Shown: positions 5,692-21,281, counted from the stretch's first letter. The stretch: DNA of 41,380 nucleotides from an uncultured Myxococcales bacterium (GCA_964469485.1 CAYXZP010000005.1:1-41380); one strand, 5' to 3'. Notes: a model not told the origin generated them from the letters alone. A program made the numbers and translations.

Positions 5692-7878
5692 CTAACTGGC
5701 CGGCGGACGCACGAATATCGGCGAGGACCAGGCGCGCGGTTCATCCTCGGCCAGGCAGTCCTCGTCAATGTCCATTGAAAAACAAGGATCGACGGACACG
5801 CAGTTGCCGTCGCCGTCGTAGCTGCAGCGGAGCCCGCCGGCGTTGATCATTGCCATGGGCTCCTCGATGGCACGGGCATAGTAAATGGACTCGCGGGCGC
5901 CGGCGACGAACTCATCGTCGCGGAAGACGGCCACGCAACCCTCCCTGGAACCATCGCATTGGTGGACCCGCCAGGGATCGTCGATGAGGTCACGAATACG
6001 CTCGCCTGGTCTTTCCTGCGGACGTATACGCACGACCTCGATGCGGGTTATGAGGCGGCGACGCCCACCCGGGTTGTAGCACTCGCCGCGGCAAAGCCAC
6101 TCGAGACGCTCGGGGCCCAGGGCGTTGAGCGAATACTCGGGGCAGCCGGGTTTCTGTTCGAAACTGCCGGCGGCACGCACTCTGAACGCGGGGGGCTCAG
6201 ACATTAGGGCCTCGCTTCCCATCGGCGCCTCTCCCTCTGGGCCGTTCATGAGATCGAACCACAGCAGAGTGCGGCCTCCGCTGGTGCCGTATACCTCGCG
6301 GTGCTCGAGCGCCTCCCATATCGCATCGCGGCCGCGCCCCACGGCGTGTACGGCCACCAGTCCTCCGGTGACGAAGAAGGAGGTCGCCCGCTCGCGTTCG
6401 GCCAGTTGCGCGACCGGCCCATGGTCGGTGTTGCGGTCCCAAGGTATGGGCTCGTCCGTGGCCGCAACCGGCTTGCCGGCGATCAGCTCGACGGAGGCCT
6501 CGTTGGCCGGACCGCGCGACTCCGTCATCTGCGGACGGTCGTATTCCTTATAACCGGTGCCCGGCCGGGCCGTGTGTATGTCGCTCGAGGCTATGAACCC
6601 GAAGCGGAAGCGACGCTTGTCGCCGGGCACGTCGAAATTGGTAAGCGCCATGGCGTACTGGGCCGAGCTGCGCGGGCGGTAGTTGAAGGCTCCCTGGAAG
6701 CAGTCGCGGCACTGGGCGCAATCGAGCCACTCGTCCGTATGCGCGCCGGGAACGGTAAGGTGGCCACGCAAGCCGGCGTCCAGATAATAGCGACGCGCAT
6801 CGCGCACCCTGCGCTCACACTCATCGGCCGGCGCATCTGCGCATCGCGAACGGATTATCTCTCCGGCCTGCCAGCAGCATGGCAGATAGTCGGGCCGTGG
6901 CTCGGGGCAGACCGCCGCGCCGTCGGCGTCGACGTCGTACTCCAGCCAGTCGCGGTATTCCTCGGAGTTACCGTGCCCCGAAAAGACCTCGATCAGGGTT
7001 TGCAAGGCCGGGTCGTGCTGCTCGCGCGTGAGCTGCTTGTCGATACTGCTGCCCGGAGGACTGTATATGCCCCAGGTGGTTCCGTGCGGGATGACTATGG
7101 CCTCGTGTCCCCATTGGGCCAGCTTCTCAAACAAGACGCCGGGATCCTCGGCCACCTCTATGCAGTCGACCGGAAGCTCGCGCGTGTCGATGCCTTCCTG
7201 GCAATAGGGAACCGCCGCAACCTCGTCCTGGTAGTGACCGAAGTCCAGATAGCGATCGAAGTTGGACAGATCGTAGAGCGGGATCAGCATGCGCTGCCAC
7301 CAGGGCATCGGTGCGAGCGCAAAGTTCAAAAGGTCTCGGGGGGCGGCGATCGGGCGGGCCGGTATGCGCTCCTCGTCGGTGTGTCTCAGGACGACGTTCT
7401 TGTGTCCATAGTGGTTGCCGGGGCTGCGCCCGGACTGCGTCCACTCCCAACCGAGAAAGGAGACGAGGTCGGGGTTGTCGGGATCACCGGCGACCTCGTT
7501 GCAACGACGTATCGCCTCCTTGGTCTCGGCCCAGTGCTCGGGGGTGATACCGGTGGCATGATCGTTGATCGACCAGAAGTCGAGGTCCGAGCAGAAACGG
7601 GCAAAATCGCAGGCGTCGGCCGGCGGGTGCACGCCTTCGCCCTGTATGATGGGCAGGCTGAGAGCGAAGGCATCGGGCGAAAATGCCGTGTGAACGTGAA
7701 GATCACCGAACAGTATCTGCTTGGCCGCAGCCCCGCCTTGGCTCGAGCTGCGCGCGGCGACCACCTCGGCCGGTAGCCTTGCCGCGCTCGGCTGACCCGG
7801 GCCTATATGCTCACCCTGACAGGCCGCCAGCGCCGTCGCCGAGGCGATGGCCGTTGCAAGGCTGGCGAGCTTCCTCAA
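5692..7878 (-). CDS. DUF3604-family lipoprotein (PHP-like metallohydrolase fold)
   Basis: Lipobox ALAA-C at residue 20; FGDLHVHT, INDH, GWEWT, IPHG, SSDIHTARPG, REVYGTSG, YYARAIE, RAWSSPIF; TTG start directly abuts the ACAD stop. Confidence 0.82.
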   Translation of the reverse strand: MRKLASLATAIASATALAACQGEHIGPGQPSAARLPAEVVAARSSSQGGAAAKQILFGDLHVHTAFSPDAFALSLPIIQGEGVHPPADACDFARFCSDLDFWSINDHATGITPEHWAETKEAIRRCNEVAGDPDNPDLVSFLGWEWTQSGRSPGNHYGHKNVVLRHTDEERIPARPIAAPRDLLNFALAPMPWWQRMLIPLYDLSNFDRYLDFGHYQDEVAAVPYCQEGIDTRELPVDCIEVAEDPGVLFEKLAQWGHEAIVIPHGTTWGIYSPPGSSIDKQLTREQHDPALQTLIEVFSGHGNSEEYRDWLEYDVDADGAAVCPEPRPDYLPCCWQAGEIIRSRCADAPADECERRVRDARRYYLDAGLRGHLTVPGAHTDEWLDCAQCRDCFQGAFNYRPRSSAQYAMALTNFDVPGDKRRFRFGFIASSDIHTARPGTGYKEYDRPQMTESRGPANEASVELIAGKPVAATDEPIPWDRNTDHGPVAQLAERERATSFFVTGGLVAVHAVGRGRDAIWEALEHREVYGTSGGRTLLWFDLMNGPEGEAPMGSEALMSEPPAFRVRAAGSFEQKPGCPEYSLNALGPERLEWLCRGECYNPGGRRRLITRIEVVRIRPQERPGERIRDLIDDPWRVHQCDGSREGCVAVFRDDEFVAGARESIYYARAIEEPMAMINAGGLRCSYDGDGNCVSVDPCFSMDIDEDCLAEDEPRAWSSPIFVRPPAS

Positions 7879-11510: not shown

Positions 11511-13418
11511 GTGATGGCAGGAACTTTCCTAAGAGCGATAGCGTGCGTCCTAATACTGGGCCTCACGGCCGGTCCGGCCCTGGCTCAGACCACCGACGAT
11601 TACCTCTGCTACAAATCGAAGGTCAGCAAGGGCACGACCAAGTTCTCCAAGGTGAACAGTCTATCGGTCACCGATTTTCTCGAGTCTGGATCCGTCGATG
11701 TAAAGAAACCCAAACTGGTCTGCGCGCCGGCCTCGGCCGACGGACAAGCGGACGACGCCGACACCCATCTAGCTGCGTACTCGGCCAAGGTCGGGCGCAA
11801 CTCGGCCAAGCACACCCGCCTCGACGATTTTCGCGTTGCCACCGAGTTGGGCGTGATGTTCCTCAACACCATAAAGGGACACCTCTTGCTGGTACCCGCC
11901 GCGGTCGACCAGAGTGCGGCCGTGGCCGCCCCCGACCCGGCCTCCCACACGGTCGATGCCTTTCGGTGCTACAAGACCAAGAAGCCCAAGGGTTTCAAAA
12001 AGATCCGGTCCCACACCGCCAACGACTGGATGAGCGGCACGCGCAGCTACGACCTGAGCAAGCCCTCGCACTTCTGTCCGCCGGCCAACATCAACGGTGA
12101 GAGCCTCGTGGACGCTGACTCGCATTTGGTCTGTTACAAGGCCAAGGCGTCAAAAGGGCAGGCCCGTCACCAACCGCTGGCCGGCCTTCACACCAACGAA
12201 CGTTTCGGCCCGCTCCAGCTCGATACCAAGAAGGAGGCACTGTTGTGCATGCCGACCACGGCCGTCCAGGGCTGCGGCGATGCGGTCTTACAAGAAGGCG
12301 AACAGTGCGACGACGGCAATAAGAATTCGGGCGACGGTTGCAGCGCCGGGTGTCAGTCGGAGCTTCCGCTCACGATCAAGGTCGTCAACATGAACATCCT
12401 GCACGATATCACCCAGGGCAACGTCGGCTTTGAACAGATAAACGACCGCTTGACCCTTCTTGCCGACGAGTTGGCGGCGGCCGATCCCGACATCGTAACG
12501 ATGCAAGAGGTCGTGCTGGGGGTAAGCGACGCCGCCCGGCGTGTCACCGACGACCTGGCCGAGCGTTACGGAATGGCCTATCACTACGTGAGCTATGGCG
12601 CGACGGTGGGCAACGCCGTGTTTAGCCGCTGGCCCGTCGTGCTCGAGGAGGTCACGCGCCTGCCGACCCCGGAAACCGTGGAGTATCACCCCGACCGGCG
12701 CTTCGCCGCCCGCGCGGTCGTCAGCTCCCCCATCGGACCGCTCGATGTCTACTCGATGCACATGTGTGCGGGCAGCATTGGCTGCAACCCGGCCGCCCGC
12801 GTCGTTCAGATGGGTGAGTTCATCGACTTCGTCGAGGCCACCCACACGAGCCGTCACCCGGCCATTGTGGGCGGCGATTTCAATTCGCGCCATGGCAGCA
12901 GCCCGGATGCCAATCCGACGAGCGGGCCGGCCATGCAGGCCATGCTCGACCAGGGCTGGTGGCCGGTCTTCGACGGCTCCGATGCCCCCTGCAACCCGCC
13001 CGGCGACCGTTCGGGTTGCACCGACAACATCGACGACCTGACGGTGGCCGCCGACACGGCCGAGCGTCGTATCGACAACATCCTTCTTGTCGCCGGTTCG
13101 GCTTCCAGCAGTGAGGGCCCGGCCACGGCTGCAGCCGAACTGGGCCCGACCTCGCGTTTTGGCGACCAAGCGCTGGCCGACCCCAACCCACGCTGCGTGT
13201 TCACGCCGCGCGACTATTGCCAGGACAACTTCGACTGCGGCCTTCTCGAGCCGCAGGTCTATTGCTCCCGCAACGACTTCTGCCAGACCATCATTGCGTG
13301 CGCCGAGGACAGCGATTGTCCGAGCGAGACCTACGGTGAGATGGTCTGCGGCACCACGCTGTGGATATCCGACCACGTCGGCGTTCAGACCACGATCATC
13401 ATCGAGGACGGCAACTGA
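11511..13418 (+). CDS. Secreted multidomain protein: duplicated Cys/Lys-rich domain + myxococcal Cys-rich repeat + endonuclease/exonuclease/phosphatase (EEP) domain
   Basis: Signal peptide (ALA-Q); CGDAVLQEGEQCDDGNKNSGDGCSAGC; EEP motifs NMNI, MQEV, GNAVFSRWP, GGDFN, RIDNI, SDHVGV. Start is GTG 11511 or ATG 11514. Confidence 0.8.
   Translation: MMAGTFLRAIACVLILGLTAGPALAQTTDDYLCYKSKVSKGTTKFSKVNSLSVTDFLESGSVDVKKPKLVCAPASADGQADDADTHLAAYSAKVGRNSAKHTRLDDFRVATELGVMFLNTIKGHLLLVPAAVDQSAAVAAPDPASHTVDAFRCYKTKKPKGFKKIRSHTANDWMSGTRSYDLSKPSHFCPPANINGESLVDADSHLVCYKAKASKGQARHQPLAGLHTNERFGPLQLDTKKEALLCMPTTAVQGCGDAVLQEGEQCDDGNKNSGDGCSAGCQSELPLTIKVVNMNILHDITQGNVGFEQINDRLTLLADELAAADPDIVTMQEVVLGVSDAARRVTDDLAERYGMAYHYVSYGATVGNAVFSRWPVVLEEVTRLPTPETVEYHPDRRFAARAVVSSPIGPLDVYSMHMCAGSIGCNPAARVVQMGEFIDFVEATHTSRHPAIVGGDFNSRHGSSPDANPTSGPAMQAMLDQGWWPVFDGSDAPCNPPGDRSGCTDNIDDLTVAADTAERRIDNILLVAGSASSSEGPATAAAELGPTSRFGDQALADPNPRCVFTPRDYCQDNFDCGLLEPQVYCSRNDFCQTIIACAEDSDCPSETYGEMVCGTTLWISDHVGVQTTIIIEDGN
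12273..12362 (+). repeat. Single myxococcal-type cysteine-rich repeat (CGDG..EQCDDGN..GDGCS..C)
   Basis: Protein motif CGDAVLQEGEQCDDGNKNSGDGCSAGCQSE. Confidence 0.8.
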
Positions 13419-13420
13419 CG

Positions 13421-15067
13421 GTGAATCGTTTCCCGGCGCTGGCGGCGGCCTTTGTGGCCGCGTTCTTTATCTGTGGCACCGATGCCGGAGCCGCTATAGA
13501 CGGCGAGACCCTTTGCCGGGTGAAGAAGCTCACGGCCTGCGCCAGACGGACCAAGGCCGAGTTGGGGTGTCACGCCAAGGCGATGAGGAAAGGAGCCGCC
13601 GTCGACCAGTCCTGTCTAGACAAGGCCGCCACCAAGTTCGGCAAGGCCATGACCAAGGCCGAGGCTCGGACCGCTTGCGGGCGCCCCGGCACGGCCGCCA
13701 CCGCGGGCGCGAAGATAGACGCCTACACGGCCGCCACGCTGGCCGCGGTGCCGGGGACGGCCAAGTGCAGCCAGACCAAGCTCAAGGCGACGGCCAAGAC
13801 CGCGATGAAGCTGTTGAAGGCCGTGGCCAAGAACGACAAGAAGCCGAGCGTGGCCAGGTTCTCCCGCGGCTTTGCCAAGGCGAAGGCCGCGCTTGTCAGG
13901 GTCTTCGCCAAGGCCGACGCCAAGGGCGGTTGCCAGGTGACCGGCGACGGCGTCGCAATGGTGGACGCCACCGATGCCTTCGTGGAGAACCTCGTCGACC
14001 TGCCCGCGCCCGATTGTCCCGCCCAGTTGCTCTACGGATCCGAAGGTAACCGGTTGCGCCGTTATGACGTCGATACCATCGGCAGCGGCAACCAGCTCGA
14101 CGACATCTTGATCGAACGCGCAGCCATCGACCCGAACGGCCGCGACATCAACGGCCAGATCTGTGCCATTCCCGGCGGCGGTTTCGTGGCCGGCGAGGAC
14201 ACCGGCCAACCCCACCCGCCGGCCGGCTGGGGCGTGTTCGACGCCGACGGCGACCAGGTCGGGAAGCTCACGCCGACCTACCAGGCCGGCCACGACCCAC
14301 CCGAACCCTTCGGTTGCTCGGTCGGCCCCGGCGGGCACCTTTTCACATCATCGCTGGGCAACCAGGCCTCGGGCGCCTTCACCGGCCAGCTCATCATGTG
14401 GTTCCCGCCCTACGACGGGTTCCCCGGCCAACCCGGCGAGTATCCCGGTACGGACGCGACCAGCCAGAACTTCTGCAAGCTGGCGACCAACTTGGGTACG
14501 GCCGGGAGCGTGACAACGGACTCCGGCGGCAATGTCTACGTCACGGCCGCACGTAGCCTGACGGTATGGAAGTTCGCGCCGCCCTTTCCGACATCGGCCG
14601 ACGGGGCCGGCGGCTGCGGCGCAACCGACGCCACGGGGTCGCCGGCGGCCGACGAGGTCGACGTATCGGTCTTTGTGGGCGCAGCCAACGTCGGTACCGC
14701 GACCGGCATCGTGCAGGCGGCCGGCGGCAACTTCTACGTGGCCGGGGTACTGACCGGCCTCATTGCCGAGTTCACGCCCGGCGGCGACTTCGTCCGGCAG
14801 ATACTCGAACCGCCCGCGGGCGAGACCGAGTTGCCGCTTTCGACCGGACATCCCCAGGGCCTCGCCATCGACTGCAAAGGCAATCTATACTTCGCCGACA
14901 TGGCCCTCGTTAACGACAATGGCAACCTCGGGCCCGGCCCCGACGGCAAGGTGCGCCGCATCAGCTTCGACCTTGCCGGCAACACCAAGAAGGTCGAGGT
15001 TGTAAAGAGCGGGCTCGCCTACCCGGACGGGCTCGGCATCATGCCCGGAGACCTCGAGGGCAACTGA
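13421..15067 (+). CDS. Secreted protein: Lys/Ala/Cys-rich helical domain + NHL/SMP-30-like beta-propeller
   Basis: Start moved to GTG 13421, 2 nt after the previous stop; signal peptide; propeller blades PFGCSVGPGGHLF, TTDSGGNVYVT, AAGGNFYVA, PQGLAIDCKGNLYFAD, GLAYPDGLGI. Confidence 0.72.
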   Translation: MNRFPALAAAFVAAFFICGTDAGAAIDGETLCRVKKLTACARRTKAELGCHAKAMRKGAAVDQSCLDKAATKFGKAMTKAEARTACGRPGTAATAGAKIDAYTAATLAAVPGTAKCSQTKLKATAKTAMKLLKAVAKNDKKPSVARFSRGFAKAKAALVRVFAKADAKGGCQVTGDGVAMVDATDAFVENLVDLPAPDCPAQLLYGSEGNRLRRYDVDTIGSGNQLDDILIERAAIDPNGRDINGQICAIPGGGFVAGEDTGQPHPPAGWGVFDADGDQVGKLTPTYQAGHDPPEPFGCSVGPGGHLFTSSLGNQASGAFTGQLIMWFPPYDGFPGQPGEYPGTDATSQNFCKLATNLGTAGSVTTDSGGNVYVTAARSLTVWKFAPPFPTSADGAGGCGATDATGSPAADEVDVSVFVGAANVGTATGIVQAAGGNFYVAGVLTGLIAEFTPGGDFVRQILEPPAGETELPLSTGHPQGLAIDCKGNLYFADMALVNDNGNLGPGPDGKVRRISFDLAGNTKKVEVVKSGLAYPDGLGIMPGDLEGN

Positions 15068-15068
15068 C

Positions 15069-17252
15069 ATGGCCCGCCGCTTCCTCGCCACCCTGCTGGC
15101 GGCCACGCTGACACTGGCCGCCTCGCCCGTGGCCGCCGACGATTGGCCGACCTATGCGGGTGGCCCGCGCCGATTGTTCTTCAACCCGGCCGAGACCAGC
15201 GTGAACCCGGACAACGTCCACCGGCTGCGCACCAAGTGGACCCTGCTGGCGGGGGCCATAGTGACGGCCTCGCCGTCGGTCGTAACGGTCGATGTCCCCG
15301 GAGAGGGCAGCCAAAAGATCGCCTACATACAGTCCTGGGACGGGCTGCTCTACGCGGTTCGTGTTGCCGACGGCACGCCGCTTTGGACCTTCACTACGTC
15401 TCACCACCCGGGAGCCTCCTATCCGGGCGCCGCCTCTGTGCACGTGGAGGATATCGGAGGCGAGCTGACCGTACTCTTTGGTGCCGGCGAGGTCTTTTAC
15501 TCGCTATCGGCTGTGACGGGCCAGGAGAACTGGCGTTTTACGGCCGGCACCGGCTGTGACGACGGCCCGGGACTTTGCGGGTTCGCCAACGAGAGGAACG
15601 AGATCGAGTCCTCGCCCATAGTCGCCGACGGCAAGGTCTTCTTCGGCATGGACGTCAACGACGTTGAGACCGGCAAGGGCGGCTTCTACGCCCTCGACGT
15701 CGATGACGGCCGGCTGGCCTGGTTCTTCGACCTCGAGAGCGGCGCCACATGCCGGCCGGACCCGGGCGACGATATCCGCCGCTTTGACGGTTACCACAGC
15801 GAAGCCGAACTGGCGCTGCCGGCGGATTTTCTGGCCACCCGCGCCGGCTGCGCCTTCGACCGCAGTTCCACGGGCTGCGGTAACGTTTGGTCCTCGCCGG
15901 CCCTCGACGAGGCCCGCGGTATGATCTTCTTCGCGTCGAGCAACTGCGACACCGACAACGACCCGACCACGACCATGCCGGCCGGACCCATGCCGCCCTA
16001 TGACGAGGCGGTGGTGGCGATCGACCTCGACGGCACTCCGGCCTGGCGCTGGCGCCCGCGCGAGGTCGACAACGACGACCTGGCCTTCGGCGCCGTGCCC
16101 AACCTGTTCAGCATCGAGGTAGGCGGCAGCTCGCGCGAGGTGCTCGGCATAGGGAACAAGGACGGTTTTTACTACGTTCTCGACCGCGACGGCATAAACG
16201 AGACAAGCGGTGTCGCGTGGAACGACGCCGACCCGAGTTTTCTTCCTTACTGGAAAACCCAGGTCGTACCGGGCGGCGAAATAGGCGGTATCCCCGCCAC
16301 GGCCTCCGTAGATGAGGACGAGCGGCGGATATACTTCAGCACCGCACCGGGCACCAACCCGGTGGCACCCCAACAACCGACCGTTCACTCGCTAGACATG
16401 GATACGGGCGATATCGTCTGGACCAACTCGGCCGACGGATTCGCCGATGCCAGTTTCGCGCCCACGAGCGCGGTACCGGGCCTGGTGTTCATCGGCAGCG
16501 TCGTCGAGAAGGGGCTGCGGATCTACGACAGCGCGACCGGCGAGAAACTTGCCTCACCGTACGTCGGTTTCGGGATCGCCTCGGCGGCGGCCGTCGTCGA
16601 CGGTACCGTCATGCTCGGTCACGGCACCGGGGAACTGGTCGCCGACCGCAGCGAACCCTCCGACATCGTGGCCCGCCTGCCGTCGCGATTGACGGCTCTT
16701 TGCGTGGTGGGAAACCCGGGTTGCCGCACGGTGGTCAAGGGCAAGAAGCTGATTATGAAGGACCGCGCGGGCGATGCTTCCAAGAGACGGCTTGTGGCGC
16801 TGTCCAAGGACCGCACGGCCATTGTGGCCCCCGAACCGGGTTCGGCAGCCGACCCCACCGTCGTGGGCGCAAGCCTCGTCATCAAGAACCCGGCAAGCGG
16901 CGAGAACCAGACCTTCGAGCTACCGGCCCCGGCCTGGAAGGGAGGCGGCCGGCCAGCCGGCGCCAAGGGCTACAAATACAAGGACGGCGCCGGTGTGAAC
17001 GGACCCTGCAAGAAAGCCGTCATCAGACCCGGCAAGATGCTCAAGGTCTCGTGCAGGGGAGCGGGCATCAGCTTCGACCTCGACGAGAACTCGCAGGGCT
17101 CGCTCGCCGTGAGGCTCGCCTTCGGCAACGAGGCCGGCGTCGAACAGTGCATGCTCTTCGGCGGCGATGTCTCACGTGACATTGGGACACTGCTAAGGAG
17201 TTCGGGGCTGTTCAAGGCCAAGGGTGCCCCGGCGCCGGCCACCTGTCGGTGA
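15069..17252 (+). CDS. Secreted PQQ-like (BamB/quinoprotein-type) beta-propeller with Lys/Cys-rich C-terminal domain
   Basis: Signal peptide; DWPTYAG...LRTKW, SPSV, YAV..ADG..LWTF, SSPIVADGKVFFG, WSSPALD, GNKDGFYYVLDR, LDMDTGDIVW repeats; no CxxCH. Confidence 0.78.
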   Translation: MARRFLATLLAATLTLAASPVAADDWPTYAGGPRRLFFNPAETSVNPDNVHRLRTKWTLLAGAIVTASPSVVTVDVPGEGSQKIAYIQSWDGLLYAVRVADGTPLWTFTTSHHPGASYPGAASVHVEDIGGELTVLFGAGEVFYSLSAVTGQENWRFTAGTGCDDGPGLCGFANERNEIESSPIVADGKVFFGMDVNDVETGKGGFYALDVDDGRLAWFFDLESGATCRPDPGDDIRRFDGYHSEAELALPADFLATRAGCAFDRSSTGCGNVWSSPALDEARGMIFFASSNCDTDNDPTTTMPAGPMPPYDEAVVAIDLDGTPAWRWRPREVDNDDLAFGAVPNLFSIEVGGSSREVLGIGNKDGFYYVLDRDGINETSGVAWNDADPSFLPYWKTQVVPGGEIGGIPATASVDEDERRIYFSTAPGTNPVAPQQPTVHSLDMDTGDIVWTNSADGFADASFAPTSAVPGLVFIGSVVEKGLRIYDSATGEKLASPYVGFGIASAAAVVDGTVMLGHGTGELVADRSEPSDIVARLPSRLTALCVVGNPGCRTVVKGKKLIMKDRAGDASKRRLVALSKDRTAIVAPEPGSAADPTVVGASLVIKNPASGENQTFELPAPAWKGGGRPAGAKGYKYKDGAGVNGPCKKAVIRPGKMLKVSCRGAGISFDLDENSQGSLAVRLAFGNEAGVEQCMLFGGDVSRDIGTLLRSSGLFKAKGAPAPATCR

Positions 17253-17272
17253 CCGCCCGGACAAAGAAAGCA

Positions 17273-17300
17273 CCGTTGCCCCCCTGTCGGGGGGGCACGG
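17273..17300. terminator. GC-rich hairpin after the PQQ-propeller gene (possible terminator or mRNA stabiliser)
   Basis: ccgt-t-gcccccct-gtc-gggggggc-acgg; the A-rich tract (acaaagaaag) is on its 5' side, so the U-tract is on the minus strand. Confidence 0.5.
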
Positions 17301-17343
17301 ACGCCCTCAGAGCCCTTTCCCAGCCTGCGCGGCGGCAGGCCAC

Positions 17344-17373
17344 TTGACGCATCGTCAACCGAGGGTTTAGGCT
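17344..17373 (+). promoter_or_regulatory. Promoter TTGACG-N18-TAGGCT with palindromic operator TTGAC-N5-GTCAA (site 2) overlapping the -35
   Basis: ttgacgcatcgtcaa at 17344-17358; TAGGCT at 17368-17373; GGGGAGG RBS before ATG 17401. Confidence 0.6.
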
Positions 17374-17400
17374 TGGACGATAAGCTGGGGAGGACGCACG

Positions 17401-18063
17401 ATGAGAAGTCTTAGTCTGTTGGCCACCATTGCGCTGTTGATCGCAACCACGTCGGTACCGGCATGGGCCGGTAGGTCGAAGGTGTTGGCAAGCCTGGTCC
17501 CGACCACCAATGGTACAGAGATGGTGGATACCAACGATGACGGTATTGACGATACCATGGTCGCTGTCGGCACCATCTCTGCAAAGAGCAAGTTTATCAT
17601 CAAGAGCAACGGGCTCATGAAGGGCCTGCTCAAGGACATCACGGACGACAGCGGCAATCCCGTCACAACCGACGGGTCGTACAAAGCCAGCGGCACGCTT
17701 ACGGGAGACGAGTACGTCATCGTGATCAGCGGTAAGTTCTTTGCCATGGACGTGGACTATGCTTTCGTGCTCGGGGTCGAGGCCAAGAAAGGCAAAGGCG
17801 CCACCAAGCTCGACGGCTCGAGCATGTTCGGCCTTATACCGGAAGGCGCGCACCGAGCCTCCTCGGTTGATTCCATACGTGCCTACGGTCCCATAGGCGC
17901 CGAGAACATCGACGGCTGCCAGAACATACTCGATGCCAACGGCACCATTCTGTACCCGGACACGACGCCCAACTTCTGCATCGGACAACAGGCCGGCGAA
18001 CCCTACCCGACCGCACCGACCGTCCGTATGATCGGCGCCGGCGGAATGCTCATCGACGGCTGA
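17401..18063 (+). CDS. Hypothetical secreted protein with DxNxDG Ca-binding-like loop
   Basis: Good RBS, signal peptide (AWA-G), DTNDDGIDD; no family recognised. Confidence 0.75.
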   Translation: MRSLSLLATIALLIATTSVPAWAGRSKVLASLVPTTNGTEMVDTNDDGIDDTMVAVGTISAKSKFIIKSNGLMKGLLKDITDDSGNPVTTDGSYKASGTLTGDEYVIVISGKFFAMDVDYAFVLGVEAKKGKGATKLDGSSMFGLIPEGAHRASSVDSIRAYGPIGAENIDGCQNILDANGTILYPDTTPNFCIGQQAGEPYPTAPTVRMIGAGGMLIDG

Positions 18064-18086
18064 GATCACCCAGAGGGGAAGTTATC

Positions 18087-19691
18087 ATGAGCCCAGCGAG
18101 CGGCCAGGCAAGCGGGGCGCTCCTTCTCGCCGCGGCCTTTTTGCTCGCGGCCCCGGCCCACGCCGAGATCAGCGTCGAGGAACGGACCTTCGTCGACAGC
18201 AGCCGCTCGACGCCCGCCAACGGGAACTACCAGGGCGCGCCCGACCGCACCCTTCCGACGCTCGTGTGGACGCCCGACAGTTCGTGCACGGCGAGCGGAC
18301 GCTGCCAGCCCTACCCCTTGTTGCTCATGGCCCACGGCATGTCGGGACTGCCCGAAGCTTTCGATGCCTTCGCGCGCACGATGGCCGAGGGCGGATACGT
18401 GGTCGCCGCGCCGGCCTTTCCGCTAACCAACGCCGATGCGCCCGGTGGTTCGCAAAGCGGCTTCCCCGACACTGTTCGCCAACCCGATGATCTGGTCTTC
18501 GTCGCGGCCCGCTTGCAGGCGGCAACGGCCGACCCGGCCGACAGCCTGTACGGGCGCATCGACGCTGCTTCGGTCTCGGCGCTCGGGGTATCGCTCGGCG
18601 GTTCCACGGTCGAGGCCCTGGCGCACACAGACTGCTGCGACGCTCTCGAACTGGACGCCGCCGTGTTGGCCGGAACCTACACGGGGATACTGCAGATGTT
18701 CGGCGGGCAGCTGCACTCGGATGGCCCGACCACGCTGGTGCTGCACGGCACGGCCGATGAGCTCATCCCCTTCTCGACCGTACCCGGACTTCTCCGGATT
18801 CTGCCGGTCCCACGCTTCTTGGTCGGCATAAAGGACGCCGAGCACGACGACTATGTGGACAGCCAGACCGAACCCGCCACTGCCGGTCGCGCCGCGGCTG
18901 AGCTTGCCACGCTTGCCCTCCTCGACTGGAAGGTCCGCGGCGAGGAAACGCCTTTCACCGACGCCATGGAATCGCTGGCCGGCCAGGACCATACGGTGGT
19001 CATAGAGCAGTGCCTGGCCGCCGGCGGCGACTGCGCGCCGGCCTGCACGGCTGTTGCCTGGAGCCAGACGCCGGCCTCGCCCCCCGACCAGCGTCCCTCG
19101 CGCGCGATGGTCAAGGTCAGGGGACTCGACCGGCCCGGGCGGGCCAAGCTGGTAGCCAAGGGATTCTTCAACCCGGCCGGCGGCACCGGTGCCGTGGACC
19201 CGGCAGCCGACGGCATACACCTCCGCCTGGGCCTCAACGGCGAGGTCGTATACGACGTCAACGTACCGGCCGGCCCGCTTTGTTCCTCACGAGGGGGCTG
19301 GACGGTCAAGAGCGGCGCCAAGCCGGTGTGGAAGTATCGCAATCGTTCTGGTGCCGTCGGGCCGCTTTGCGCCGAGGGTAGCGCCAAGGGTTTGGCAACG
19401 GTCGTCGTAAAGGATCTCCGTGCCACCTCCAAAAACGCGTTCCGTTACACCGTCAAGGTAAAGAAGACGGTGCTTGCCGGGACCGCCGCGGCCCCGTTGA
19501 CCGAGGTCAGCCTGGCCTTCGTGATGTCGGCCCAAGCCGAGCTCGGCATCCCATCGGCCGCGGCCGCGGCCGGGCACTGCGCCGTCGACCTCACCACCGG
19601 AGACCCCATCGCCGGGGCCGCGCCAAAGCCTTTTTGCAGCGTGAAAACTGCGGGCGCCGCTCTCAGCGCGATCTTCTGTAAAGGCCTCTAG
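18087..19691 (+). CDS. Secreted alpha/beta hydrolase (chlorophyllase/dienelactone hydrolase-like) with Lys/Cys-rich C-terminal domain
   Basis: Signal peptide (AHA-E); YPLLLMAHG, GYVVAAP, nucleophile elbow GVSLGG, HGTADELIP (Asp), AEHDD (His). Confidence 0.82.
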   Translation: MSPASGQASGALLLAAAFLLAAPAHAEISVEERTFVDSSRSTPANGNYQGAPDRTLPTLVWTPDSSCTASGRCQPYPLLLMAHGMSGLPEAFDAFARTMAEGGYVVAAPAFPLTNADAPGGSQSGFPDTVRQPDDLVFVAARLQAATADPADSLYGRIDAASVSALGVSLGGSTVEALAHTDCCDALELDAAVLAGTYTGILQMFGGQLHSDGPTTLVLHGTADELIPFSTVPGLLRILPVPRFLVGIKDAEHDDYVDSQTEPATAGRAAAELATLALLDWKVRGEETPFTDAMESLAGQDHTVVIEQCLAAGGDCAPACTAVAWSQTPASPPDQRPSRAMVKVRGLDRPGRAKLVAKGFFNPAGGTGAVDPAADGIHLRLGLNGEVVYDVNVPAGPLCSSRGGWTVKSGAKPVWKYRNRSGAVGPLCAEGSAKGLATVVVKDLRATSKNAFRYTVKVKKTVLAGTAAAPLTEVSLAFVMSAQAELGIPSAAAAAGHCAVDLTTGDPIAGAAPKPFCSVKTAGAALSAIFCKGL

Positions 19692-20476
19692 CCCGTAGCG
19701 CGCTTGACACCGGCCCGGAAAAGGCCGGGCAGGAGCGCCTTGACGAGATAGGCGCCGGCGAGGGCGCGCGGATAGGTGATCGTGCGCTTGCCGCGTGCGA
19801 GCGCACCGATGGCCGCGTCGGCCAGCTGCGAGGCCTCGACCATAGAGCGCCTGGCGGCCCACGGCATCGCGGCCAGCGCCTCCTCGTCGAAGAAATCGGT
19901 TCGGACCGTGCCCGGGCAGACCGTCAGAACGTGGACGCCGGCCTCTTCGACCTCGACCGACAGCGATTCGGCAAGGCCGACGGTCGCAAACTTGGTGGCC
20001 GCGTAGCCGCTCTCACCCGGCGGCGCGATGCGGCCGGCCACCGAGGCCATGAAGACCAGCCAGCCCGAGCGCCGCTCCACCATCGAAGGCAGCAATGCCT
20101 TGGTCCAGTAAAGCGAACCGAAGTAGTTGGTCCGCATCATGCGCTCCATGTCGTCGAGTTCCCAGGCCAGCAAGCTTCGGTGGCGCCCGTAACCGGCGTT
20201 GTTGACCAAAAGGTCTACCTTGCCAAACTTCTCTATGGCGAAGGCCGCCGAGGCCTCGACCGCACGGCGGTCCGAGACGTCACAGGGGAGGACCAGCGCC
20301 CGGCCACCGCCGGCCTCTATATCGGCGGCCAGTTCTTCGAGAAGTTCGCTGCGGCGAGCTACCAGGGCGACCTGTGCGCCACGCGCGGCGATGCGAAGGG
20401 CCAGCTCGCGGCCTATGCCGCTCGATGCCCCCGTAACGACGGCCCCAAGGCCTTGGTAGCTCTTTAGCTTCGACAC
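19688..20476 (-). CDS. Short-chain dehydrogenase/reductase (SDR)
   Basis: Start moved to GTG 20476; VVTGASSGIG, NNAG, YAATK; its stop overlaps the convergent hydrolase stop (CTAG). Confidence 0.9.
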   Translation of the reverse strand: MSKLKSYQGLGAVVTGASSGIGRELALRIAARGAQVALVARRSELLEELAADIEAGGGRALVLPCDVSDRRAVEASAAFAIEKFGKVDLLVNNAGYGRHRSLLAWELDDMERMMRTNYFGSLYWTKALLPSMVERRSGWLVFMASVAGRIAPPGESGYAATKFATVGLAESLSVEVEEAGVHVLTVCPGTVRTDFFDEEALAAMPWAARRSMVEASQLADAAIGALARGKRTITYPRALAGAYLVKALLPGLFRAGVKRATG

Positions 20477-20480
20477 GATC

Positions 20481-21251
20481 TCAGAGTTCGTAGCCGCCGC
20501 CGGGCGCGCGTTTCCAAGCGCCGGCGGCGTGGTTACCGCCGTCCACGTGGATGACGGTCCCGGTGATAAAGCGCGAGGCGTCGCTGGCCAGGAACAGAGC
20601 CGCCTGAGCGACGTCCTCCGGCCGGCCCTCGTAGGGCAGCGGGCGCGGTATCTCGGCCGGCCCGTACTGCTCGAGACCGGGCGTGGGAATGGCGTCGGGA
20701 GCAATGGCGTTGACCCGGATGCTGCGGCCGGCAAGCTCGAGGGCAAGGGTCTTGGCGAGGTTCTCCTGTGCGGCCTTCATCGCGGAATAAATTGCGTAGC
20801 CCGGGCCGGCCCGGTGAGCCTCTATGGAGGTGATGTTGATTATGGAGCCGCCGCCCTCGGGCATCAGCGGAACCACCGCGCGTATCATCGCCGTCACGCT
20901 CGTGAAGTTCTCGCGAACGAGCGCGTCCTCGCCCTTTTCGTTGACGTCCATGAAGTCGGCAACGAAGCCGCCGCCGGCGTTGTTCACCAGAACGTCGAGT
21001 TTGCCCGCCTCGGCGGCCGTCTCGGCGACAAAGGCGGCCGTGGCCTCGCCGTCGCGAACATCGAGCAGGGCCACGATCGCTTTGCGGCCACACGCTTCTA
21101 TGTCCGTTGCCGTGGCACGGAGCCCATCGGCGTCGCGGTCGCAGATGGCAAGGTCGGCGCCGGCCTCGGCGAAGAGCCGGGCTATGGCCGCGCCTATGCC
21201 CTGGGCTGCGCCCGTGACCAGCGCGGTTCGTTCTTTGAGTGACAGTTCCAT
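20481..21251 (-). CDS. Short-chain dehydrogenase/reductase (SDR)
   Basis: Start moved to ATG 21251; LVTGAAQGIG, NNAG, YSAMK, IRVNAIAP, FITG..IHVDGG. Confidence 0.92.
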   Translation of the reverse strand: MELSLKERTALVTGAAQGIGAAIARLFAEAGADLAICDRDADGLRATATDIEACGRKAIVALLDVRDGEATAAFVAETAAEAGKLDVLVNNAGGGFVADFMDVNEKGEDALVRENFTSVTAMIRAVVPLMPEGGGSIINITSIEAHRAGPGYAIYSAMKAAQENLAKTLALELAGRSIRVNAIAPDAIPTPGLEQYGPAEIPRPLPYEGRPEDVAQAALFLASDASRFITGTVIHVDGGNHAAGAWKRAPGGGYEL

Positions 21252-21253
21252 GG

Positions 21254-21281
21254 TTGCGTTGTGCGACGCGGAGGCTATCAT
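21254..21281 (+). promoter_or_regulatory. Possible promoter for the thiolase-DUF35-amidohydrolase operon
   Basis: TTGCGT (21254-21259), 16 bp spacer, TATCAT (21276-21281) in the divergent gap. Confidence 0.33.

Follow-up and report, generated by a model that had tools for sequence, protein, structure and literature searches.

Lysine-rich accessory modules on exported proteins of a conserved gene cluster in a marine Binatia bacterium: candidate portable tethering domains

Five consecutive genes (g1 to g5) in a stretch of DNA from an uncultured Myxococcales bacterium (GCA_964469485.1 CAYXZP010000005.1:1-41380) encode exported proteins, and four of these proteins join an enzyme or propeller core to a lysine-rich accessory module. 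An earlier note, made from the sequence alone, had proposed that the five proteins form a dedicated surface enzyme assembly, in which the modules target, anchor, or dock the enzymes outside the cell so that substrates are pre-processed for the flanking coenzyme A (CoA) pathways. The whole stretch of 41,380 nucleotides that was analyzed, hereafter the window, makes up contig C5 of a genome that spans 2.2 Mb in 135 contigs and is 94% complete. Labelled proteins similar to those of the window came from Candidatus Binatia or Binatota and, in one case, from Deltaproteobacteria; the host is a marine bacterium of the class Binatia with a small genome. The window stretch was present in DNA sequencing runs labelled marine or brine metagenome, and no RNA run was among the runs listed.

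The best explanation, in our analysis, is that the modules are portable noncatalytic binding or tethering domains carried by exported Binatia proteins, and we place about half of our confidence in it. Three module types occur in the cluster, as the earlier note had also distinguished: one in g1, the helical module M2 in g2, and the beta modules M3 of g3 and M3b of g5, which by profile comparison form one superfamily. As judged from sequence searches, the M2 and M3/M3b families are uncatalogued in Pfam and NCBIfam. The claim that the modules belong to no characterized family therefore stood for M2 and M3/M3b and failed in part for g1, whose module consists of DUF7450 and DUF4215, two families that Pfam names though they are uncharacterized.

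Recurrence and composition of the modules

The modules are not confined to the cluster. With reading frames taken from stop to stop, profile searches of this genome located 6 frames with M2, 5 with M3, and 1 with M3b, and the partners of the modules included a PETase-like hydrolase, two RCC1 propellers, a pentapeptide-repeat protein, a pectin acetylesterase, and DUF4215 with unassigned sequence. DUF7450 recurred in two further places in the genome, on a CotH/lamin-tail protein and on a 332-residue reading frame. We then considered a set of 41 genomes, made up of the 40 nearest sampled relatives and this genome. The g2 query matched 29 of the 41, and full-length g2 orthologues numbered seven in the 40 relatives; most of the other matches covered the M2 part only, in frames of 161 to 1,623 residues. 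M3 was found in 30 of the 41 genomes and M3b in 16. M3 followed the signal peptide directly in many relatives, and its partners included a PQQ propeller and PI-PLC-like, PD40, beta-helix, YHYH, and DUF4215 domains.

A search of a library of 1.84 billion representative sequences with the M2 profile returned 3,740 representatives at an E value of ≤0.001 and 2,075 at ≤1e-10. Of the best 150, 136 carried the domain at the N terminus, directly after the signal peptide, and 14 carried it at the C terminus only; two or more matched stretches were present in 51, the median was 8 Cys per domain, and 54 had fewer than 80 residues outside M2, some of which may be fragments. Five top-scoring representatives (P0021, P0023, P0026, P0029, and P0030) are ∼370 amino acids (aa) long, hold two M2 stretches and no Pfam family, and may be module-only proteins. 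Another Pfam domain accompanied M2 in 22 of the 110 representatives that were scanned among these 150: CAP, GSDH, cupredoxin, FG-GAP, polyhydroxybutyrate (PHB) esterase, PETase-like, trypsin-like, DUF11, Lcl_C, NHL, DUF5122, and others, to which precomputed domains added cytochrome c and sialidase. In none of the 110 did the best Pfam stretch lie over the M2 part. The M2 and M3 families are portable: they stand at the N or C terminus, their neighbors come from more than 15 unrelated Pfam domain families, and some copies stand by themselves. As folded domains the modules are autonomous, and the pairing of enzyme and module was kept in every orthologue recovered (44 to 75% identity).

The range of the modules was restricted by lineage, as the earlier note had supposed. 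Named matches belonged to Candidatus Binatia or Binatota, with one from Deltaproteobacteria. In a phylum sample of 201 genomes, M2 (E ≤ 1e-5) was found in 7, namely 3 of 6 within the class and 4 of 195 outside it. The four outside the class (G064, G104, G139, and G201) belong to one family, and each had one weak match (E values from 4e-6 to 7e-10). The note had suggested module profiles as a check on its system; these profiles gave many fusions over this limited range, the modules occurred many times per genome, and the genes were co-located in relatives. None of the three outcomes that the note had named as refuting its idea was seen, except that the g1 module carried a Pfam name (a DUF).

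The earlier note had also read four of the proteins as an acidic core fused to a basic module. The cores had net charges from −21 to −43, and the modules had net charges of +3 (g1), +17 (g2), +14 (g3), and +14 (g5). This reading thus held for the cores and for the modules of g2, g3, and g5 but not for the module of g1, which is Lys-rich and nearly neutral (25 Lys and 10 Cys in residues 26 to 290, the DUF4215 repeat included). In this genome, all 14 M2, M3, and M3b segments were net positive, and the remainder of each reading frame was net negative.

Lysine itself was partitioned more sharply between the two halves of the proteins. The g1 core held 0 or 1 Lys in 340 to 356 residues in 4 of 4 orthologues (none in the window copy), the g5 core 0 to 2 in ∼290 residues in 5 of 5 (2 in the window copy), and the g2 propeller 3 to 8 in ∼350 residues in 6 of 6. 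The low counts in the g1 and g5 cores extended to orthologues in other families. The modules carried 14 to 29 Lys each, counted over 16 copies (4 of g1, 6 of g2, 5 of g5, and the window copy only of g3), apart from one g5 orthologue with 5 Lys, in whose module Arg predominates. The Lys:Arg ratio lay between ∼3:1 and 27:1 for the modules of g1 and g2 and between ∼1.1:1 and 1.4:1 for those of g3 and g5. The G+C content at third codon positions was alike in modules and cores (0.80 to 0.89); therefore, the lysine bias lies at the protein level and is not a sign of foreign DNA. Lysine richness, more than basicity, is the trait conserved in the modules, and the contrast between modules enriched in Lys and g1 and g5 cores nearly devoid of it provides a simple, testable compositional signature.

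Table 1. Features of the g1 to g5 cluster (positions counted from the first nucleotide of the window)
Feature	Position	Strand	Description
g1	11511-13418	+	635 aa; exported EEP-family phosphoesterase with N-terminal Lys-rich module
g1 module, part 1	11592-12260	+	DUF7450 repeats; CYK...LC.P units, Lys-rich
g1 module, part 2	12270-12362	+	DUF4215/TIGR02232 cysteine-rich acidic repeat
g1 EEP core	12381-13415	+	Acidic, 0 Lys in 345 residues, net charge −31
g1 Cys-rich insertion	about 13191-13349	+	Within EEP core, before the final SDH motif
g2	13421-15067	+	548 aa; exported NHL-type six-bladed propeller with N-terminal helical module M2
M2 module	13493-14020	+	g2 residues 25-200
g3	15069-17252	+	727 aa; exported PQQ-type eight-bladed propeller with C-terminal beta module M3
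M3 module	16722-17249	+	g3 residues 552-727, ∼175 residues
G+C-rich hairpin	17279-17295	+	In the 148-nt g3-g4 spacer, without a T-run; not flagged by the terminator scan
g4	17401-18063	+	220 aa; small exported protein without any of the three module types
g5	18087-19691	+	534 aa; exported alpha/beta-hydrolase with C-terminal beta module M3b
g5 core	18165-19043		293 residues
M3b module	19044-19688	+	g5 residues 320-534, C terminus; distant M3 homologue

The individual proteins

The earlier description of five codirectional genes with signal peptides and short first gaps was confirmed, the gaps being 2, 1, 148, and 23 nucleotides from g1 to g5 in order. Read by eye, all five N termini look like Sec type I signal peptides (a basic start, a hydrophobic run, and a cleavage site), with apparent cleavage at ALA/Q, AGA/A, VAA/D, AWA/G, and AHA/E for g1 to g5, respectively. 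Direct reading of the termini agreed with the note that sorting and anchoring motifs are missing: g1 to g5 have no LPXTG motif, no PEP-CTERM tail, no second hydrophobic span, and no lipobox kept in orthologues, the Cys in the g2 signal peptide not being conserved among them. Of the four folds that the note had named, EEP was supported by PF03372, the PQQ-like propeller by PF01011, and the alpha/beta-hydrolase by an orthologue profile and an invariant catalytic triad; for the NHL propeller, the Pfam score was just short of its cut-off and the indication came from an orthologue profile.

The g1 core matched PF03372 (EEP) at 55.5 bits (cut-off, 24.5). Residues N293/N295, E333, D456/N458, D522/N523, and D621/H622, in motifs of the N/E, DFN, IDN, and SDH types, were invariant in 4 of 4 orthologues. 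Residues in these motifs are the catalytic ones of the EEP family, and the active-site motifs look intact by this comparison. Neither the single sequence nor the orthologue profile of the core matched a solved EEP structure in the PDB, and the subfamily (nuclease, phospholipase C, or phosphatase) is not assignable. In the module, where DUF7450 and DUF4215 together cover about residues 28 to 284, PF24247 (DUF7450) scored 43.7 bits on the whole protein and 47.5 bits on the N-terminal part alone (cut-off, 27), TIGR02232 scored 41.7 bits (cut-off, 20.8), and PF13948 scored 25.7 bits on the whole protein and 29.2 bits on the N-terminal part alone (cut-off, 27). The g1 orthologue profile had a single PDB match, a segment of human pappalysin-1 (E = 2.7e-5), reached through the DUF4215 Cys-rich repeat. 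A literature search found the name DUF7450 in no paper, and the one preprint found to mention DUF4215/TIGR02232 calls the function of DUF4215 unknown. No relation of DUF7450 to M3 or M3b was found with hhalign (probability, 0.2 to 0.3%), in a comparison of a single sequence with a profile that has low power.

For g2, the Pfam NHL profile fell just short of its cut-off (19.2 to 19.3 bits; cut-off, 20) and matched 2 of 6 orthologues at E ≤ 0.01. The orthologue profile matched PknD and the designed Pizza NHL propellers (E values from 2.6e-7 to 3e-6), and the single sequence of the core matched nothing in the PDB. SMP-30/SGL (PF08450) was matched by 1 of 6 orthologues (E = 7e-4) and not by the g2 of the window. 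In a class-level relative, the propeller part of g2 was matched by itself, in two overlapping frames without M2 (G034:C1:241987-243013), a copy that either lacks the module or contains a frameshift.

The M2 module is a tandem duplicate of a ∼90-residue, three-helix unit with four conserved Cys and the end motif KAE.KGGC..GD. Its AF2 model has six helices (predicted local distance difference test [pLDDT] score, 88.3), and M2 is predicted to fold as a six-helix bundle. M2 had no credible match in Pfam or NCBIfam, its model found nothing in the PDB at E ≤ 0.001 with Foldseek (a check that the note had proposed, and which gave the same result for M3), its profile had one marginal match among PDB sequences (E = 0.0043), and the ESM Atlas gave no usable match. 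VIA-align, run against 48,161 chains, placed Pfg27 (1n81) first (Z score, 9.0; root mean square deviation [rmsd], 6.8; 161 aligned residues), a score within the chance range of the tool for helical bundles, and also listed the PhoU-like protein 2iiu (Z score, 8.3; rmsd, 6.5; 156 aligned). M2 shares with PhoU-like bundles and Pfg27 the gross layout of two tandem three-helix units; however, identity to M2 is 6%, the scores are in the chance range, no sequence relation was found, and PhoU proteins reside in the cytoplasm and do not have the eight conserved Cys of M2.

The g3 core matched PF01011 at 96.2 bits (cut-off, 26.7) over profile positions 1 to 330 of 595, and its weak PDB matches were quinohemoprotein alcohol dehydrogenases. 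Together, g3 and g2 resemble the pairing of a quinoprotein dehydrogenase with a periplasmic lactonase in their propeller types (PQQ type in g3 and NHL type in g2) and in being usually adjacent. They differ from it in that g3 scored far below the curated NCBIfam quinoprotein subfamilies (66.7 against 832.65 bits, 64.4 against 480.05, and 60 against 650), pqqC was not found, and SGL was matched by so few g2 orthologues. The pqqC search of this 94%-complete genome also matched no control genome, so that absence of the gene is unproven; a search for pqqE gave only a subthreshold radical-SAM match.

The M3 module carries the motifs DPT..GA, LPA..W, GY.Y.D, and LDE..QGS. Its AF2 model consists of strands throughout (pLDDT, 91.9), and M3 is predicted to be an all-beta domain. 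Neither M3 nor M3b had a match in Pfam or NCBIfam. The best VIA-align match of M3, to the ZP-N domains of mouse ZP2 (Z score, 5.5; rmsd, 4.1; 104 aligned), was within the chance range of the tool, and the ESM Atlas matches of M3 were Binatota clusters only. The missing fold matches of M2 and M3 do not prove that these are new folds, and the alignments of the two families hold no conserved stretch of 7 to 10 columns. The modules of g3 and g5 (∼175 to 215 residues) are distant homologues in one superfamily, because their profiles match each other (hhalign probability, 97.4%; E = 1.6e-11; 135 columns), the only evidence of the relation; direct BLASTP comparison of the two modules was not significant (E = 0.16).

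The core of g5 looks like a Ser-Asp-His carboxylesterase or lipase-like hydrolase whose conserved active-site motifs appear intact: the triad of S169 (in GVSLGG), D224, and H253 was invariant in 5 of 5 orthologues, and the orthologue profile matched esterase 5yae, GlacPETase, lipase, and PAF-AH chains at E values of about 1e-5. The single sequence of the core had no match in the PDB, no single Pfam or NCBIfam family passed its cut-off, and we claim no membership in a specific family.

The remaining protein, g4, had no family match in Pfam or NCBIfam. Homologues of g4 were present in 12 of the 41 genomes and adjoined g3 or g5 orthologues, the neighbor being g3 in four genomes, g5 in one, and both in two. 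In one relative, a second g4 paralogue lies away from the cluster (G008:C14:57618-58136). An Asp-rich loop of the D.NDDG.DD type, at about residues 41 to 52 of g4, is found only in this genus; in other homologues, its place is taken by a gap or a Cys-rich insert. The g4 orthologue profile gave one weak match to a Group I dockerin (E = 0.0034), which is due to this single genus-only loop. A complex prediction for g4 with mature g5 scored 0.00, in a run without controls and with an uncertain partner fold, so that the score carries no weight for or against a complex.

Cluster conservation and competing readings

The cluster is conserved in part among relatives. In the same genus, G001 has g1 to g5 with the same flanks. 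In two genomes of another family (G004 and G019), g1-g2-g3-g4 lie between the gene for an ACAD-type dehydrogenase and the SDR genes that also flank the cluster here; G008 and G016 have g2-g3-g4 adjacent by coordinates, and G016 and G019 have a g5 orthologue on a separate contig. G003 has g2-g3 adjacent at one locus and g4-g5 adjacent on another contig, and G011 has g2 alone, with g3 and g4 about 4 kb apart. Thus, g2 and g3 are adjacent in all but one (G011) of the seven relatives with a full-length g2. The genome of G002, from the same family and 97% complete, gave no match to g2, g4, or M3b. The pairs g2-g3 and g4-g5 move together, which suggests that the enzymes cooperate.

Within the window, g2 starts with GTG (an alternative, longer frame from position 13361 overlaps g1), and g3 starts with ATG. 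On spacing alone, there are probably two transcription units, g1-g2-g3 and g4-g5, and the hairpin between g3 and g4 marks a possible operon boundary; promoter and terminator scans scored 2 and 7 hits, respectively, in line with the 0.9 and 6.4 expected from shuffled sequence. The upstream flank holds genes for ACAD, a TetR regulator, and an AMP-dependent ligase, and the downstream flank holds those for two SDRs and a thiolase-like protein. A 728-residue frame on the minus strand (5692-7878), upstream of the acyl-CoA dehydrogenase gene, matches DUF3604. The two SDR frames, both on the minus strand, overlap as called (19688-20746 and 20481-21281); the true start of the first is probably later than that of the longest frame, because its Pfam match begins at residue 102.

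The reading that we favor runs as follows. The cluster encodes five Sec-exported proteins, four of them bipartite, each joining a divergent enzyme or propeller core to a noncatalytic, disulfide-capable, Lys-rich accessory domain. The modules would act like carbohydrate-binding or tethering modules, holding the enzymes on a polyanionic matrix (the cell's own envelope, exopolymer, or particles) or on the substrate, and tethering would keep the enzyme and its products from being lost by diffusion. They would be general-purpose handles of the Binatia exported proteome rather than parts of one five-protein machine. In the weakest step of this scheme, the g1 phosphoesterase and the lipase-like esterase g5 may act on lipid-like or polyester substrates.

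Several observations weigh against this reading. The propellers of g2 and g3, two of the four "catalytic" cores, are unverified as enzymes; propellers of the NHL type can serve purely in binding, and pqqC was not found by the search described above. Net positive charge is not constant within the families: M2 ranged from −15 to +15 (median, +4; 101 of 134 domains positive and 29 negative), M3 from −2 to +14, and the g1 module is about neutral, so that a purely electrostatic tether cannot be the general mechanism. That g1, g2, and g3 stay tightly linked in relatives hints at a functional coupling beyond what a set of independent enzymes sharing generic handles would show. Moreover, the five proteins have Sec signals only and no recognized outer-membrane targeting feature; the surface display proposed in the earlier note was therefore not borne out.

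A Sec signal alone delivers a protein to the periplasm, and it is conceivable, though we hold it unlikely, that the five proteins stay there, with the modules serving as stabilizing or partner-docking domains (for redox partners or chaperones, for example) and with no surface display. PQQ-type propellers are typically periplasmic, disulfide-rich domains suit an oxidizing periplasm, and M2 is also carried by cytochrome c, cupredoxin, and glucose/sorbosone dehydrogenase proteins. Other partners of the modules, however, are typically extracellular or adhesion-type domains (PETase-like, PHB-depolymerase esterase, trypsin-like, CAP, FG-GAP, and DUF11). Membrane anchoring is not the rule either, a lipobox-like start being present in 8 of 135 M2-family proteins, and export across the outer membrane is possible because the genome encodes three secretins.

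To a similarly small degree, we credit the proposal that g1 to g5 are a catabolic front end that breaks lipids or polyesters down to fatty acids or alcohols for use by the neighboring acyl-CoA ligase, ACAD, SDR, and thiolase-like genes, which would be compatible with the modules being tethering domains. The makeup of both flanks, the retention of g1 to g4 between ACAD and the same SDRs in G004 and G019, and the resemblance of g5 to lipase, PAF-AH, and PETase are in line with it, and EEP enzymes include phospholipase C and sphingomyelinase types. Against it, the arrangement in G004 and G019 lacks the TetR and ligase genes, the g2-g3 locus of G003 is without the CoA genes that flank the cluster in the window within the 19 kb around it (its g4-g5 pair being on another contig), and adjacency to CoA genes is expected by chance because CoA-metabolism genes fill much of the window. 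The cores of g1, g2, and g5 have no close solved relatives, and no substrate is assignable. The pre-processing of substrates for the flanking pathways, as the earlier note had it, thus comes down to synteny that is partly conserved.

Docking of the modules on a scaffold, on each other, or on g4, in the manner of cohesin and dockerin (PF00963 and PF00404), would give a surface multienzyme complex; we consider this improbable. In its favor, the five genes form a cluster that relatives conserve, g4 stays beside one or the other M3-type gene, and the tandem proteins that consist of little but M2 (the 54 of 150 above, some maybe fragments) could be scaffolds. Dockerin_1 also passed its cut-off elsewhere in the genome (G000:C36:10561-10716, C29:6169-6312, and C62:5990-6139), and two of these sites lie within 1.5 kb of module-bearing frames (C29:7611-9977 and C36:9246-10424). 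In both systems the concept is that a portable module positions enzymes outside the cell, but the modules here have 175 to 265 residues, compared with ∼60 in the calcium-binding dockerins, no dockerin passed the Pfam cut-off in g1 to g5 (the g4 profile match being weak), and a search of the 94%-complete genome found no cohesin (PF00963). At least 12 other genes, dispersed through the genome and with unrelated partners, carry the same modules, and the net positive charge that M2, M3, and M3b all have in this genome speaks against mutual binding. With no cohesin, scaffold, or sorting signal found, the dedicated five-gene assembly of the earlier note did not hold up.

Two ideas carry still less weight. 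The lysine partition would allow a lysine-directed reaction on the handle alone, either enzymatic cross-linking to envelope or exopolymer or dense multivalent salt bridging, and the Binatia enzyme repertoire would then be displayed through three interchangeable Lys-rich families, unlike in the sortase, PEP-CTERM, type IX secretion, and cohesin-dockerin systems; we regard this as a long shot. Least probable of all is that the modules are pro-domains (intramolecular chaperones or inhibitors) removed after export: their usual place right after the signal peptide (M2 in 136 of 150, and often M3) and the opposite charges of module and core, which could favor an intramolecular complex, would fit, but modules are also C-terminal (M2 in 14 of 150, as well as g3 and g5), tandem, or nearly stand-alone and sit on nonenzymes (pentapeptide and RCC1 repeat proteins), and one domain type on more than 15 unrelated folds is unlike specific pro-domains.

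Relation to known systems and significance

Tethering by portable modules has its closest parallel in the binding modules of modular exoenzymes, such as carbohydrate-binding modules and the substrate-binding domains of polyhydroxyalkanoate depolymerases. Like the modules described here, these are autonomous, stand at either end of many unrelated exported catalytic domains, and are kept in orthologues; M3 also resembles them in being predicted to be all-beta. The likeness is one of architecture only. None of the catalogued modules matched in sequence or clearly in structure, and the six-helix bundle predicted for M2 and the strong Lys bias are unusual in this company.

Binatia are widespread and uncultured, and roles in methylotrophy and alkane degradation have been proposed for them (PMC8262859); the main text of that study uses neither "secreted" nor "extracellular." Among the Binatota and Binatia publications listed by our literature search, none concerned exported modular proteins by title or abstract.

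The locus described here shows that much of the exported proteome of Binatia draws on a small kit of portable domains. The M2 and M3/M3b families are absent from Pfam and NCBIfam and have no clear relative in the PDB, and M2 alone comprises thousands of sequence clusters. Naming and modelling the M2 and M3 families would improve the annotation of hundreds of exported proteins now called "hypothetical," and the ligands of the modules would reveal how Binatia retain their exoenzymes in sea water.

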